Assembly (NCBI GenBank): GCA_963664405.1
Contig: OY761158.1
Coordinates: 736,001 to 800,000, forward strand
Source of the DNA: Thermoanaerobaculia bacterium
Lineage (GTDB): Bacteria; Acidobacteriota; Thermoanaerobaculia; Multivoradales; Multivoraceae
Direction: 5' to 3'
DNA length: 64,000 nt
In this document: one piece after another, positions 19,749 through 46,898 of the stretch
Layout of the letters: every line of letters begins with the position of its first letter
Position numbering within the stretch: position 1 is the stretch's first letter
The notes under the pieces: generated by a model
Databases searched by the model: none
Seen by the model: the letters and a program-made list of their open reading frames with translations, nothing else
What the model was told of the DNA's origin: nothing
Made by a program: the position numbers and the translations under genes

Positions 19749-19899
19749 TGTCGTGAAATGTGGCGCACTGCGACAGGTATAGCCGAAAGGCGATAGACCC
19801 CGAAATGAAGGCGCTGTCGCAGTTCAGGGTGAGGTCCGACAGCACAGATCGAGCTCTGAGCCGCTGATCCCACGGGCGACTGTAAGATGTCGCCAAGTC
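19749..19899 (+). repeat. Full repeat unit
   Basis: TGTCG-N17-CGACA at 19749 and 19815; GGCGAC-tgTAAGAT-GTCGCC at 19875-19894. Confidence 0.92.
19875..19899 (+). promoter_or_regulatory. Putative -10 element (TAAGAT) inside a GGCGAC/GTCGCC inverted repeat; near-leaderless kinase promoter
   Basis: TAAGAT, TATGAT or TAGAAT lies 11-12 nt upstream of every kinase or kinase-stub ATG; no Shine-Dalgarno. Confidence 0.55.
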
Positions 19900-23556: not shown

Positions 23557-23707
23557 TGTCGCATTTGGTGGCGCACTGCGACAGCCATAGCTCGATCCGC
23601 ATAAGCCCTCGCTGAGCGCTTTTGTCGTCTTTCTGGGTGAGGTGCGACAGCACAGATCGAGCTCTGAGCCGCTGATCCACCGGGCGACTGTAAGATGTCG
23701 CCAAGTC
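23557..23707 (+). repeat. Full repeat unit
   Basis: Boxes at 23557 and 23623; ATAGC..ATAAG linker; conserved leader. Confidence 0.92.
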
Positions 23708-26377: not shown

Positions 26378-26531
26378 TGTCGCTTTTGGTGGCGGACTAC
26401 GACACGAATAGCCAAGTGTCGATAGCCTCCAGAGAAAGGCCGTCTGTCGTACTTCTCGGTGCTTTGCGACACCCACAAAGCGATCGGCGAGCAGCTGATC
26501 CCACCGGCGACGGGTAAGATGTCGCCAAGTC
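26378..26531 (+). repeat. Full repeat unit
   Basis: Boxes at 26378 and 26445; leader CTGATCCCACCGGCGACGGGTAAGATGTCGCCAAGTC. Confidence 0.9.
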
Positions 26532-34828: not shown

Positions 34829-34918
34829 TGTCGCAATATCTGGCGAAGCCCGACACGAATACATCGAACCGAAAGGGGCCAACGAGAAGCGGGATGTAGC
34901 AGCTTTCGACGGGAGACA
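34829..34918 (+). repeat. Box A + degenerate linker and box B
   Basis: TGTCGcaatatctGGCGaagccCGACA; TGTAG 66 nt downstream. Confidence 0.8.
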
Positions 34919-35142: not shown

Positions 35143-36837
<1,695 letters not shown>

Positions 36838-42681: not shown

Positions 42682-43062
42682 GTGGTACACGACTTGGCAC
42701 ACCGCGACCTAGGCATCGAGCTGACCGAGGCCCAAACCACCTACATCAACCTGATCATCGTCGCGGCACCCGTCGTCGCTGTCATTCTCGTGTGGACAAG
42801 GTTCAAGACGGCTGGGGCCATACTCTTCGCTTTCGCCATGGCCGGCTCCCTTCTCTTTGGCCTCTACAATCACTACCTTCTCGTATCGCCCGACCACGTG
42901 TCCTACCTACCCGACGGCGATCTCCAGTCTGCCTTCCGGATCACCGCTTCGCTCCTGGCGCTCCTCGAGGCTCTGGGAGTGGCAGTTGGAATCTGGGGGG
43001 TCATTCTCGGCCGGGGCTCCGAAGGCAAAGGACCTGGAGTGCCGAGCGCGAGCGTGTCGTGA
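42682..43062 (+). CDS. Membrane hypothetical protein
   Basis: TM segments, HY..SPDHV motif; true start may lie ~55 nt upstream. Confidence 0.6.
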   Translation: MVHDLAHRDLGIELTEAQTTYINLIIVAAPVVAVILVWTRFKTAGAILFAFAMAGSLLFGLYNHYLLVSPDHVSYLPDGDLQSAFRITASLLALLEALGVAVGIWGVILGRGSEGKGPGVPSASVS

Positions 43063-43205
43063 TTTGTGGCGCAAACATCATGGGATGGCGCGCGGGTGGC
43101 GCCCCCGGACGATGTCGATGAATATTCTTGAGTGGTCCTCCCCCGAAGGCGTCAAGCTTAGGGAAACACAAACACCTGGGCTTGGACCCAGGAAGGAGGA
43201 CCAAG

Positions 43206-44240
43206 ATGGAACGATACCTTGGCATCGATCCCCACCGCGACAGCTGCACGCTGGCGTTGGTGAGCCCGCGAGGCAAGAAGGTCAAGCAGATGGTGGTGCC
43301 GACCGAAGGGTCGGAGCTGGTCAAGACGGTGCGGGAGCTTCGAGGGCCGCTGCACGTCTGTGTGGAAGAGGGCGAGTGGGGCGAGTGGATCTCAGAGATT
43401 CTGACACCGTGGGTGGCTCGCCTGGTGGTCTGTCGGCCCGAGAAGCGTCGAGGTCCGAAGAGCGATGCCTGCGATGCTCGGGAGCTGGCAGAGCGTCTGC
43501 GGACGAATCGGACGGGCCCGCCGGTGTACAAGCCCGGGCAGGAGTGGGCTCGTTTGCGCGAAGCGGTGCGCCTGGAGTCGAAGCTGACCCAGGATCTGAC
43601 TCGCACGAAGCTGCGCTTGAACAGCCTTTACCGTCGGCGGGGGGTGACGTGCCCCAACGGCGACCTCTACCTACCACGGCATCGCTCGAAGTGGGTAAAA
43701 CAGCTGCCTCCGAGCGGACGTCCGTGCGCGGAGATCTGGGGCGAGCAGATCGATTTGCTCGCAGAGCTCCACGAGAAAGCAGAGAAACAGATGCACGCTG
43801 CGGCTGCGCAGTTTCCGGTCTGGAGCACGCTGCAGACCGCACCGGGGATTGCCAAGAAGCGAGCCGCGATCCTGCTCGCAACGGTGGTCACACCGCACCG
43901 GTTTCGCACCAAGCGGCAGTTTTGGTCGTACTGTGGTCTGGGAATCGTGACTCGGAGCTCCTCGGACTGGGTCCAGCAGTCCGGGCACTGGGTGCGTGCA
44001 CCGGTGATCCAGACCCGCGGTTTGAATCGGGCATCCAACCGGCCGCTGAAAGCGGTCTTCAAGGGCGCGGCGCTCTCAGCGCGCACGATGTTGGCGCCCA
44101 ACCCCTTCCGCAACCACTACGACCGCATGCTAGAAGCCGGGACGAACCCGAACCTGGCGCAGCTGACGCTGGCGCGCAAGCTCGCGGCCATCGTTTTGGC
44201 GATGTGGAAGACCGAAAGCGAGTACAAACCCATGAGCTGA
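43206..44240 (+). CDS. IS110-family DEDD transposase/recombinase
   Basis: YLGIDPH, VEEG, KSDACDA; APGI, SYCGL..RSSS, LARKL; GGAGGA RBS. Confidence 0.93.
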   Translation: MERYLGIDPHRDSCTLALVSPRGKKVKQMVVPTEGSELVKTVRELRGPLHVCVEEGEWGEWISEILTPWVARLVVCRPEKRRGPKSDACDARELAERLRTNRTGPPVYKPGQEWARLREAVRLESKLTQDLTRTKLRLNSLYRRRGVTCPNGDLYLPRHRSKWVKQLPPSGRPCAEIWGEQIDLLAELHEKAEKQMHAAAAQFPVWSTLQTAPGIAKKRAAILLATVVTPHRFRTKRQFWSYCGLGIVTRSSSDWVQQSGHWVRAPVIQTRGLNRASNRPLKAVFKGAALSARTMLAPNPFRNHYDRMLEAGTNPNLAQLTLARKLAAIVLAMWKTESEYKPMS

Positions 44241-44605
44241 TCCACCCCTTCTCCGCTCCTTGCTCGAGCCGTCTGCAGGCTGACGTAGCTCAGGAGCCTG
44301 GATCGAGAGCGGGATCGGCAGCGAGATCGAAAGGTCGAGGGGAAGTCTCCACTGTCGTCATCGGCCCCATCGAAGACGGTGGAAGTCACCAGGCGCAAAC
44401 TAGGCCCCCTCACAGGACCGAAAGAAGAAATGGCCTAAGAGGCCCCGTTGGGAAGTTGGTCCACAAACCTAGTAGGACACCAAAACTCGCTTCTTATCTC
44501 CAACGCCGCACCGCTCACACAACCGATCTGAGGACCGAACTGCGCGTAGCGGACCGGCTCGGTAACGGAAAGTACCGCGCTCGATATCAAGTCGTCGAGG
44601 GCCTA
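44241..44605 (+). ncRNA. Putative bridge/seek RNA region of the IS1111-type element
   Basis: Target guides CTGTCGT (44352-58) and GGCGCAAAC (44392-400) lie in an internal loop between two stems; RNA boundaries unknown. Confidence 0.75.
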
Positions 44606-44613
44606 GGAAAGAT

Positions 44614-45897
44614 GGCTCTTCAGGATTTCGTGTGGGCAACAGGCCTCGGGTAGAGATCGAGTCCTCCAAGATGGAAGTAGATGGCGTTACGGAATCGCTC
44701 CCGATTACGGAATCCTCGCGCGGCTCTTTTGATGTTCTGGATCTTGGTGTTGAGGCCCTCGGACATGGCGTTGGTGACGCCGGTCTTCATGGCGTTGACG
44801 ATGCCCCACAGGTAATGGCGTAGGGTTTTGGCCACCTTCTTGATGGGAGCGAGGCGGGAACGGATCGCCCAGGAGTACCAGGAGGCCCAGGCCTGTTCGG
44901 CGTCGTCCGCGGCGCTGGTCTCCCACACGGTCATCGCCAGCTCCTTGATCGCCCAGGCCCGTGCCGTTTTCAGTGCGCTATTGCGAAGCTCCTCGAAGCG
45001 AAGCTCCTGCTCCGAGGTCATGTGGTCGGGATTGCGCAACCAGAGGTAGCGAGTCCCACTGAGCCGATCGTCGCCATCCGAGCGAAGGTCTCGATGTTCC
45101 TGGCGACGGACACGATCGACGGCGTCACCCAGAAGCTTGGCGACGTGAAACTTGTCAAAGACGATGCGCTCAAGCGGCTTGTCGAGATGCTCGCTGGCCG
45201 CCGAGATGTAGGGGCCCCACATGTCCATCGCCAGCGTCTCCACCTGGCTAAGCCACGACGCTGGAGCACCTTGCAAAAACTTCCCTAGAGCTTCCCGACC
45301 CCGACCGTCCGCGACGTGAACCACCGTCCCGTGACTGCTGTCCACGACCACCGTGACGTACTCGTGCCGGCGTTGAAACGACGTCTCGTCTACACCCAGA
45401 TGGCGGGTCGGGCGCAGCGTTCTGCGGGCCAATCCTCGGCCCACGGCACGCTGCTGAACCCCGTCGATCTGATCCCAGCTCAAACGCAGAAGCCGGGCAA
45501 CAGCCGAGAGATTCGACTCTCCAAGCCAGTCGATCGCCAGCCGCTCGAACTGTGCCGTGAAGCCCGAGCCGACCTCGGCCCACGGCACACGAACCTGACG
45601 GACGCCGTGATCTCCGCACTTCACACGAGGAACCTCCGCGACCAGAACCGTCATGTACTGCATCGTGTCGAGGTGACGCCACTTGCGCTCACGCGTGTCG
45701 TAGCGCGGACTCGCCGCTCCGCATTCCGGACACGCTAGCTTCCGTGACCCGTTCTCCAAGTGCACTTCCACCGTCTCTGGACCTAGCTCGACATCTGTCA
45801 CATGCCACGGCTCCTCGATCCCAAGAAGCTGGGCGTAAAGCTCTCGATCTCGCATACTCGCAGCATACGATCAACCCACACGAAATCCTGAAGAGCC
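44614..45897 (-). mobile_element. ISL3-family insertion sequence
   Basis: Perfect 23-bp IR GGCTCTTCAGGATTTCGTGTGGG; 8-bp TSD GGAAAGAT at 44606-13 and 45898-905. Confidence 0.96.
44620..45855 (-). CDS. ISL3 transposase
   Basis: CPECG zinc finger, WRHLD, GVDETS, MDMW, FDKFHV, TNAMSEGLN. Confidence 0.95.
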   Translation of the reverse strand: MRDRELYAQLLGIEEPWHVTDVELGPETVEVHLENGSRKLACPECGAASPRYDTRERKWRHLDTMQYMTVLVAEVPRVKCGDHGVRQVRVPWAEVGSGFTAQFERLAIDWLGESNLSAVARLLRLSWDQIDGVQQRAVGRGLARRTLRPTRHLGVDETSFQRRHEYVTVVVDSSHGTVVHVADGRGREALGKFLQGAPASWLSQVETLAMDMWGPYISAASEHLDKPLERIVFDKFHVAKLLGDAVDRVRRQEHRDLRSDGDDRLSGTRYLWLRNPDHMTSEQELRFEELRNSALKTARAWAIKELAMTVWETSAADDAEQAWASWYSWAIRSRLAPIKKVAKTLRHYLWGIVNAMKTGVTNAMSEGLNTKIQNIKRAARGFRNRERFRNAIYFHLGGLDLYPRPVAHTKS

Positions 45898-45968
45898 GGA
45901 AAGATTTGTCTTGACATCTCATCCCTTGGGAAACGACAGCCATAGCTCGATCCGCATAAAGAGACGCA

Positions 45969-46898
45969 ATGAAGACATTGAAGCGTATTACCCTGCTCGG
46001 AATACTCATGACAGCACTCGTGGCCTGCCCGGCTGCGCCCCCGGGGAGCTCGACTGATGAGGAGGCTGCCGTAAGGAGGGGCACACAGAGATTTCTGAAG
46101 GCCCACAGCCTCAAAGACTGGCCTGCTGTCGCTGCGACGTATACGGAGGACGCCGTTCTCCATCCACCCAACGCAGGCCCGGTGAAGGGCCGGGACGAGA
46201 TTCAAGAGTGGTTCGAAGCGAACGAGCAGTACACGAGCCTGGATCTGGAGATAGCCGAGATCGATGTCCGTGCGGACCTGGCCTACGTCTGGGGACTCTC
46301 CACGATAACGATCGAGGAACCAGGAAGAGAGCCGGTGGTCCTTTCGGGAAAGTACTTGGACATTCGACGGAAGCAGCCCGATGGCGACTGGCTGATCTCC
46401 GTCGATATGTTCAGCCCGAGTGAAGAATTAGGTGTAACAAATGTCGTCGGGTCAGTCGAGCCCTACGTCCAGAGCTGGGAGGAAGGAGAGATGCTCGTCG
46501 ACTCGAAGGGTCGAAAGACGTTCATCAAGGTCAGCCCTGAAACCGGAGCCCAGAGCCTGGCGTTTTTTGTTCAGCAGATGCCCTCGGGTTCCGGAATCAA
46601 GGTCCACCGACACAGCCGTGCAGAGGAAGTGCTGTTCGTACACGAGGGCTCCGGGACCTTTGTCGTGGGCGACGGGCGCGTACCCGTCGAGAAGGGGGCC
46701 ACGGTCTTTGTCCCGCCCGGCGTGTGGCATGGCTTCGAGAACCCAGACGAGCAGGTCGACCTGGCCTTCGTGGTGACACCAACCGGGCTGGAAGGTCTCT
46801 TTCGAGAGCTGTTCTGGCGCGAAGGCGAGGAGCCGAAGGTGTTCACTCCCTCGGAGATCGAGGAGATCGAACGCAAGCACGGCCAGCCCAGTCGCTGA
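45969..46898 (+). CDS. Lipoprotein: NTF2/DUF4440 domain fused to cupin
   Basis: LVAC lipobox; GKYL..RKQPDGDWLI; HRH..EEVLFV..G, PPGVWHGF. Confidence 0.8.
   Translation: MKTLKRITLLGILMTALVACPAAPPGSSTDEEAAVRRGTQRFLKAHSLKDWPAVAATYTEDAVLHPPNAGPVKGRDEIQEWFEANEQYTSLDLEIAEIDVRADLAYVWGLSTITIEEPGREPVVLSGKYLDIRRKQPDGDWLISVDMFSPSEELGVTNVVGSVEPYVQSWEEGEMLVDSKGRKTFIKVSPETGAQSLAFFVQQMPSGSGIKVHRHSRAEEVLFVHEGSGTFVVGDGRVPVEKGATVFVPPGVWHGFENPDEQVDLAFVVTPTGLEGLFRELFWREGEEPKVFTPSEIEEIERKHGQPSR

Follow-up and report, generated by a model that had tools for sequence, protein, structure and literature searches.

Natural insertion sequences (ISs) of the IS110 family include the closest described counterparts of the locus studied here. 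PMC11187229 describes IS1111-type elements that carry their RNA in the right end, that target repetitive extragenic palindromic (REP) sequences and attC sites, and that include ISEc11 and ISXne4 as cases of natural reprogramming. IS621, as described in PMC11208160, relies on a bridge RNA. We investigated a 64,000-nt stretch (the window; positions 736,001 to 800,000 of contig OY761158.1, assembly GCA_963664405.1) from a Thermoanaerobaculia bacterium. It contains an element, copy A, that is very probably an IS1111-type member of the IS110 family, consisting of a DEDD recombinase gene and a structured non-coding RNA that specifies the target. It represents a well-supported new example of the RNA-guided mechanism described in 2024; the mechanism itself is not new.

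Copy A has a length of 1,566 bp once a nested ISL3 element and one copy of its target duplication are subtracted, and it splits one TGTCG-N17-CGACA unit with breakpoints at 43072/43073 and 45932/45933 (Table 1). The left flank terminates in GGCGCAAAC (43068-43076), and the right flank begins with AACGACAG, preceded by ..CCCTTGGGA, with ACGACAG at 45933-45939. The right half of the rejoined unit had been described as almost the same as the copy at 23579-23604; 45934-45959 (26 nt) is in fact identical to it. Near the ends, CATGGGATG is the inverted counterpart of CATCCCTTG at 45920-45928, with 8/9 positions matching in copies A and B, and a TTGAC-type box is found at the same distance from the end in most relatives compared. 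The non-coding sequence comprises 131 nt upstream of the transposase gene versus ~398 nt downstream (ISL3 removed). The initial annotation had treated 43055-45960 as a single IS, which holds for the presence of an IS110-family element and misses the second, nested ISL3 element.

Table 1 Features of copy A, its guide RNA, and the interrupted target unit (positions within the window).
Feature	Position	Strand	Basis or remark
Left half of interrupted target unit (TGTCG, 8 nt, GGCG, C)	43055-43072	+	Matches first 18 positions of the canonical unit
Left-junction dinucleotide AA (putative donor core by family geometry)	43073-43074	+	Left target, core (2), 4 nt, subterminal repeat; loop 2 encodes TTGGG-AA
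IS left end: 4-nt extension ACAT and subterminal inverted repeat CATGGGATG	43075-43087	+	
DEDD-type IS110-family transposase gene, 344 aa	43206-44240	+	
Two-loop guide RNA (seekRNA / bridge RNA)	44333-44464	+	Covariance model R1; stems covary
Guide T (5′ side of loop 1)	44352-44359	+	Reverse complement matches right flank ACGACAG 45933-39
Guide B (3′ side of loop 1)	44392-44400	+	9/9 identical to 43068-43076 (left flank and first IS bases)
Donor guide (3′ side of loop 2)	44449-44455	+	TTGGGAA = right end and dinucleotide, 45926-45932
ISL3-family insertion sequence	44614-45897	-	Transposase 44620-45855, minus strand; 23-nt perfect inverted repeats
IS right end: -35-like TTGACA (45911-16), subterminal repeat CATCCCTTG (45920-28), 2-nt extension GG	45906-45930	+	
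Right-junction dinucleotide AA	45931-45932	+	Geometry as at left junction
Right half of unit (ACGACAG and box CCATAGC..CATAA)	45933-45959	+	~10 nt upstream of ATG at 45969

The guide RNA spans 132 nt, with the target loop located within 44337-44411 and the donor loop within 44415-44462. The regions downstream of the transposase in copies A, B, and C and in D, a 57%-identical homologue (G041, locus L003), align well, and each folds as two stem-closed internal loops. A covariance model of this RNA, R1 (129 positions, 27 pairs), was matched over its full length, downstream of the transposase, at 26 of the 27 genomic loci, which come from 14 genomes; the sole locus without a match contains just the 5′ part of the gene. 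Among the metagenome loci, 9 of 14 were matched (seven full-length, two truncated by the contig). Of the five remaining loci, four stop short of the non-coding region and one is just 30% identical. Every match, genomic or metagenomic, lies downstream of the transposase gene. The bridge-RNA covariance check proposed earlier for this region has thereby been carried out with our own model, which recovers the RNA across homologues with covarying stems.

In the model-fitted alignment, 92.1% of stem cells were paired compared to 75.3% in shuffles, and both-side changes were found in 101 cells compared to 40.3; controls with slid partners reached 32-49% pairing. Covariation scored on an alignment fitted to a model leans towards that model, and we take these values as support, not proof. 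The outer closure of the target loop in A is formed by 44337-42/44406-11 together with 44345-48/44402-05, while the covariation-supported inner closure comprises 44363-65/44385-87 and 44367-71/44378-82. All guide and stem strings listed in the initial annotation are found at the positions it gave (CTGTCGT 44352-44358, GGCGCAAAC 44392-44400, GAGGGG 44337-44342, CCCCTC 44406-44411, CATCG 44359-44363, CGGTG 44377-44381). The proposed outer GAGGGG/CCCCTC closure was retained; the inner CATCG (44359)/CGGTG (44377) closure was replaced by the other helix, which covaries.

Variability in the RNA alignment is highest at the loop bases, and three segments of the conserved two-loop RNA covary with the adjacent DNA or with the ends of the element. 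For guide T and the right junction, the longest exact match averaged 7.9 nt over 18 cognate pairs (≥7 nt in 14/18; lowest values 3 in L001 and 4 in L021) compared to 3.5 nt over 306 non-cognate pairs, and 0 of 20,000 permutations reached the observed value. This test used one representative for each of 18 element types and dropped 8 of 26 loci, namely copies B and C, which belong to the target family of A, and six duplicate copies. Guide B and the left junction showed the same behavior, with a mean of 7.0 nt over 11 cognate pairs (≥7 nt in 8/11) compared to 4.0 nt over 110 non-cognate pairs and again 0 of 20,000 permutations. Here, the sample consisted of the 11 types whose left end could be located via the subterminal repeat, and L001, L003, L004, L005, L015, L019, and L021 were omitted. 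In D, for example, guide T contains GCACCTCC and the right flank begins with GGAGGTGC.

Close metagenome relatives occupy the same TGTCG...CGACA unit family with matching guides. The two matches measure 9 and 7 nt in L029 (99% protein identity), 9 and 9 nt in L032 (77%), 7 and 11 nt in L037 (64%), and 6 and 5 nt in L039; L031 has one guide B mismatch. The donor guide changes with the right end, reading TTGGG-AA in A and B, ATGGA-AG in C, D, L037, and L039, TTGGA-AG in L032, and ATAGA-AC in a distant group. From homologue to homologue, the 3′ side of loop 2 thus varies together with the right end, and the donor guide TTGGGAA tentatively suggested earlier is real; the start assigned to it, 44448, was wrong, and the string lies at 44449-44455 and again at 45926-45932. 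The RNA-guided IS1111-type reading was to be judged by the flanks of other copies of the IS and by the covariation of guides with targets among homologues. Both support it: copy B, a left-end remnant, and the metagenome relatives share one unit family, and the permutation results hold for guides T and B each.

The assignment of copy A to the IS110 family and its IS1111 group is sequence-based and is supported by its domains, the position of the RNA, the order of the guides, and the subterminal repeats. The transposase scored 42.3 bits with Pfam PF01548 (cut-off 29) and 40 bits with PF02371 (cut-off 21.3), and it aligns to the IS621 (8wt6) and ISCro4 transposases with E about 5e-6. In IS1111-type seekRNAs, the top-strand complement is described as lying 5′ of the bottom-strand match (PMC11187229); here, guide T (44352-59) precedes guide B (44392-400), and the order is the same in all aligned homologues. 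The 9-nt subterminal repeats fall within the 7-17 bp given for IS1111 in PMC11208160 and under the 11-13 bp given in PMC11187229. Weaker points are the NCBIfam score (see below), the C-terminal motif, and the terminal extensions. Compared to the IS1111 motif GL-P----S(t)G, the C-terminal GLGIVTRSSS keeps G, L, and the serine and lacks P and the final G; relatives have GLAVVTRSSA-like strings. The extensions beyond the repeats amount to 6+2 or 4+4, depending on the dinucleotide assignment, and differ from the values in PMC11187229, 7 (or 6) bp for the left and 3 bp for the right end.

ISPa11 (PMC11187229) and ISPpu9 (Ssr9 RNA) are IS1111-type elements that insert into Pseudomonas REP palindromes, and copy A shares with them a DEDD transposase, a downstream RNA gene, and a constant insertion point and orientation within a short, multi-copy extragenic palindrome. 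Unlike theirs, its target unit is lineage-restricted, arranged in clustered arrays, and often found 20-200 nt upstream of co-oriented open reading frames (ORFs), and its transposase is divergent (sub-cut-off score, GLGIVTRSSS). The analogy drawn earlier to the attC-targeting elements ISKpn4, ISPst6, and ISPa25 (PMC11187229) holds as RNA-guided insertion into a repeated, partly palindromic, gene-separating array site. However, the array is not an integron; it contains large Ser/Thr kinases, a sigma-70 factor, and a Na+/H+ exchanger and has no attC-like organisation. With the IS621 bridge RNA (PMC11208160), the RNA of copy A has in common the target and donor internal loops, a pair of guides of which one pairs with the bottom strand on the left and the other with the top strand on the right, and a dinucleotide common to donor and target. 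It differs in that the RNA lies in the right end and not the left, the two guides come in the opposite order, the subterminal repeats are long, a right-donor guide is not evident, and the junction dinucleotides differ in B, L029, and L032 (left the donor-loop version, right AC). As in ISEc11 and ISXne4 (PMC11187229), RNA stems are kept and loop bases differ to match different targets; unlike there, reprogramming also involves single bases among copies with at least 99% protein identity.

To give an overview of the distribution, the clade was found in 14 of 401 genomes sampled from the phylum, in addition to marine-sediment metagenomes. The search for relatives by genome contigs gave one remnant only, and the wider genome and metagenome scans yielded the remaining relatives. 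In four marine-sediment libraries, three of them recorded as RNA-Seq, contigs with 90-99% likeness extend over the transposase gene and the region of the RNA; in some runs, parts of the element had little or no coverage. The contigs run from 44613 straight into the right end without ISL3; relatives lacking this passenger therefore exist in nature, and nothing beyond that follows from them. In one environmental contig, a left flank in a GGTGG unit joins the window match at 43073. The word shares of the marine-sediment runs were small (0.10-0.17), and the habitat claim is limited to the 90-99% contig likeness.

Further copies are present in the same genome. Copy B (4985430-4987002, minus strand) is intact, lacks ISL3, and is 99.7% alike, with 5/1,566 differences from A; the transposase frame of A is open and its protein identical to that of copy B. 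Copy B occupies another unit, and its flanks rejoin to ..TGGCGC-AC-TGCGACA.., whose central 15 bases equal those of the intact units at 19749, 23557, and 39695. Copy C (5459641-5461074; L008/L009) is 68% identical, has a transposase frameshifted into two pieces, and lies in an oppositely oriented unit, with guide T matching 10 nt. Two left-end remnants were found, one at 1144819-1144914 (97% alike over ~100 nt, in a unit after GGCGG) and one at 3962570-3962687 (minus strand, 86% alike over ~100 nt). The match between guides and unit explains why the IS sits only in TGTCG...CGACA units of this genome. As a separate observation, the palindromic arms of the unit allow guide T of copy C to pair with either arm.

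The unit TGTCG-N17-CGACA occurs 118 times in the 6.78-Mb genome compared to 6-32 occurrences of any other single spacing between 10 and 25, and 21 of these units lie in the window between 11662 and 42526. In the strict form TGTCG-N8-GGYG-N5-CGACA, 88 units were found in the genome and just one with N4. Each of 60 relatives contains 0-5 strict units (backward-read control pattern, 0-1). The units are clustered in a few genome regions. Those in the window precede plus-strand genes encoding Ser/Thr kinases with PD40 repeats, DUF1326 proteins, a sigma-70 factor, a Na+/H+ exchanger, a zincin, and a cupin/SnoaL protein. A co-oriented ORF start was found ≤200 nt downstream of 51/88 units (divergent, 27/88) compared to 195/500 random positions, a crude test with an only suggestive result. 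Our interpretation of the unit is a palindrome of promoter-proximal or operator-like character and not an integron site; possibly, the units are promoters or operators of a lineage-specific regulon. A search with the 14-nt rejoined site (≤3 mismatches) gave 6 matches compared to 9.4 expected and was uninformative. An integron-like cassette array was also considered and is ruled out by gene content and site shape.

Units are often paired ~66 nt apart, the GGCG type being followed by ..ATAGC..GATAAG and the GGTG type by a strongly conserved leader, CACAGATCGAGCTCTGAGCCGCTGATCC, which precedes paralogous Ser/Thr kinase genes. Inside the array, a full-length sigma-70 gene (regions 1.1, 1.2, 2, 3, and 4) is located at 35143-36837, preceded by the unit at 34829.

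The junctions of copy A follow a layout common to A, C, D, L010-L014, L016, L020, and L023: left target, dinucleotide, 4 nt, subterminal repeat, and, at the other end, subterminal repeat, 2 nt, dinucleotide, right target. The subterminal inverted repeats of the relatives are perfect and 9-10 nt long. In most elements, the left dinucleotide equals the right, being AG (C, D, L037, L039), AC (distant group), GC (L016), or AA (A, L035). Based on this family geometry, the shared dinucleotide of A (43073-74/45931-32) is more likely AA than AC. The earlier proposal of a 2-nt core is thus kept and its identification as AC disfavored: AC would require a 4-nt right extension in A and a 2-nt one in B, which is inconsistent. 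Both readings yield the identical rejoined site.

Junction dinucleotides differ in B, L029, and L032, where the left one equals the loop 2 dinucleotide (AA, AA, and AG) and the right one is AC; the pattern is 3/3 in one direction, too few to test. Guide T of L032 is complementary to AC plus the right target. Furthermore, guide B extends 2-3 bases into the element's own left end, and the donor guide often extends 1-3 bases into the right target. These extensions resemble what might be expected if the guides paired with recombined junctions. In canonical units (B, L029, L035), CGACA begins 4 nt after the right-end GGG, whereas in A the distance is 3 nt, so that one base is missing from an A-run.

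The nested ISL3-family element is flanked by an 8-bp target duplication, GGAAAGAT, at 44606-44613 and 45898-45905, and its transposase scored 256 bits with Pfam PF01610 and 331 bits with the NCBIfam ISL3 model. The genome contains one further full copy (4270131-4271414, 99.7%) and one half or partial copy (1253879-1254530, 99.2%), and the ISL3 element has therefore been recently active in this genome. Because it has its own repeats, its own duplication, and copies elsewhere, the ISL3 element is the later arrival, inserted into the 3′ non-coding part of the IS110-family element. Its insertion site is uninterrupted in copy B and in the environmental contigs.

Several observations weigh against an RNA-guided IS1111-type element. 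The single-sequence fold of A is ordinary (z -1.32; 18/200 shuffles fold as well), and Rfam gave 0 matches at gathering thresholds across the whole window; at E up to 1, just a sub-threshold mir-877 match was found in 43000-46000, inside ISL3. The RNA-labelled sediment contigs cannot show transcription of the guide RNA. With the NCBIfam model NF033542 ("IS110 family RNA-guided transposase"), the protein scored 118.5 bits, below the cut-off of 140; the alignment is full length (4-337 of 344), and we read the score as that of a divergent clade, not of a different fold. A second donor guide, for the left end, was sought on the 5′ side of loop 2 and not found, in line with the initial annotation, which had likewise seen no clear one; this side is conserved and rich in purines, and its sequence does not follow that of the left end. 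On the target side, L021, L001, and L030 show no good match of guide T to the right flank, and guide B of copy C matches just 5 nt. Copy B fits its own flanks poorly, with 8/9 positions for guide B and just CGACA, 1 nt out of register, for guide T. Lastly, with a single exception, every unit in the genome is 1 nt longer than the rejoined A site. The 16-nt spacer in place of 17 nt had been recognized from the start; the resulting N4 unit is real and unusual next to the 88 canonical N5 units. Slippage, a homopolymer assembly error, or a rare N4 unit are possible sources of the missing base.

These points bear on four rival explanations. That the guide-flank matches arose by chance can draw on their shortness (9 and 7 nt) and on the G+C-rich genome, and simple arithmetic puts the expectation in a ~370-nt region at ~1e-3 for an exact 9-mer and ~2e-2 for a 7-mer. 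Yet the matches fall at the same positions of a conserved structure in every homologue, and the permutations of each guide (0/20,000) leave chance a negligible probability. We consider it highly unlikely that the protein alone picks the target, for example by recognizing a palindrome, with the RNA acting as a 3′ untranslated or regulatory region and the flank likeness being incidental. The palindromic unit does have a shape typical of protein-binding sites, and both the missing left-end guide and the misfit of copy B to its site speak for such an explanation. However, across 18 element types with unrelated targets, the loops change with the flanks while the stems stay constant, and the published systems require the RNA (PMC11187229). 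It is hardly credible that the flanks are part of the element, its ends having been drawn too far in, and that RNA and flank match through co-travel. The last 3-4 bases of guide B (AAAC), constant beside A, B, and the remnant, would fit this and are by geometry the element's own first bases. Against it stand the 88 uninterrupted units without any IS in the genome and the variation among copies to the left of GGCG and to the right of CGACA. The base after GGCG also differs among sites, being C in A, B, and L029, G in the remnant, and A in L031.

The fourth explanation concerns activity, not identity: copy A could be a relic immobilised by ISL3 or by an indel at the right junction, with only copy B active. 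The RNA and the right end are 1,292 bp further apart owing to ISL3, the site formed at the right junction lacks 1 nt relative to the canonical unit, and relatives decay in this genome, as illustrated by the frameshift in copy C. On the other hand, the open frame encodes a protein identical to that of copy B, the RNA is intact, as are the two subterminal repeats and the two junctions, and IS1111-type elements can move cargo placed between their ends (PMC11187229). We regard a relic as unlikely, though well worth keeping in mind. With gene, RNA, and both ends intact, copy A may still be mobile as a 2.9-kb composite.

Copies A and B differ at 43997 (synonymous), 44241, 44306, 44352, and 44396. 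The last two are the guide bases facing the variable unit positions CGACA-G/C and GGCG-C/G; for 2/5 differences to fall within 17 guide bases of 1,566, the hypergeometric P is 0.0011 (post hoc). The guides of A fit the A site (guide B 9/9, guide T 7 contiguous), and those of copy B fit the unit at 26378 (GGCGG .. ACGACAC) and the left flank of the remnant at 1144914. Among elements with ≥99% protein identity, the guide-base combinations are T=C/B=C in A, T=G/B=G in copy B, and T=G/B=C in L029, where the combination fits its own site; environmental contigs covering 44396 have G in all cases. Tentatively, the lineage might be undergoing natural single-base retargeting and recombining at targets whose dinucleotide is mismatched at the second base (donor AA/AG, target AC), with the donor version remaining on the left, a scenario we hold to be rather doubtful. 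If true, it would imply that IS1111-type recombination tolerates non-identical cores and that the guides are under diversifying selection to sample ~90 promoter-proximal sites. As a side observation, the site of the remnant at 1144819-1144914, after GGCGG, fits the guide variant of copy B.

By analogy to the published mechanism, the guide RNA would bind the recombinase and loop 2 would pair with the abutted ends of the excised circle. Recombination would then insert the element into a TGTCG-N8-GGYG-N5-CGACA unit, with GGCGC on one side and the 3′ arm CGACA on the other. Copy A later acquired ISL3, between the guide RNA and the right end. Joining of the ends is predicted to place the right-end TTGACA box upstream of the left end, which may drive expression of transposase and RNA. 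A sigma-70 promoter scan of 42950-46050 gave 0 sites, and the account of RNA transcription therefore rests on the published idea of a circle-junction promoter; terminator-like sites in the same interval are at chance level. The interval 44465-44613, which separates the RNA from the ISL3 insertion point, contains a hairpin-like stretch (..GCTCGAT..TCGAG..) with conservation among A, C, and D; this stretch may belong to a long precursor RNA or be a terminator.

The locus extends RNA-guided IS1111-type recombinases to a divergent clade, for which a two-loop RNA model, clearly defined ends, and numerous naturally occurring guide/target pairs are available. It thus offers a comparative set for the guide rules of IS1111-type elements (length, register, dinucleotide tolerance, extension into the ends), which are less worked out than those of IS621. 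With a 344-aa recombinase and a 132-nt RNA, the system is compact. In the window, the unit whose two arms are parted by the element is located ~10 nt ahead of the start codon at 45969.

Two relatives show additional rearrangements. L014 (G099:C64) contains a partial tandem repeat of its right part, with a second donor loop and a second right end following the first, and a sequence matching guide T follows just the outer right end. The remnant L001 retains only the last 39 transposase residues, yet its RNA is complete. The guides of this RNA, GTGTCGCG and GGTGGAATC, appear directed at a TGTCG...CGACA-type unit and do not fit the present right flank; its guide B equals the right end plus flank over 9 nt.

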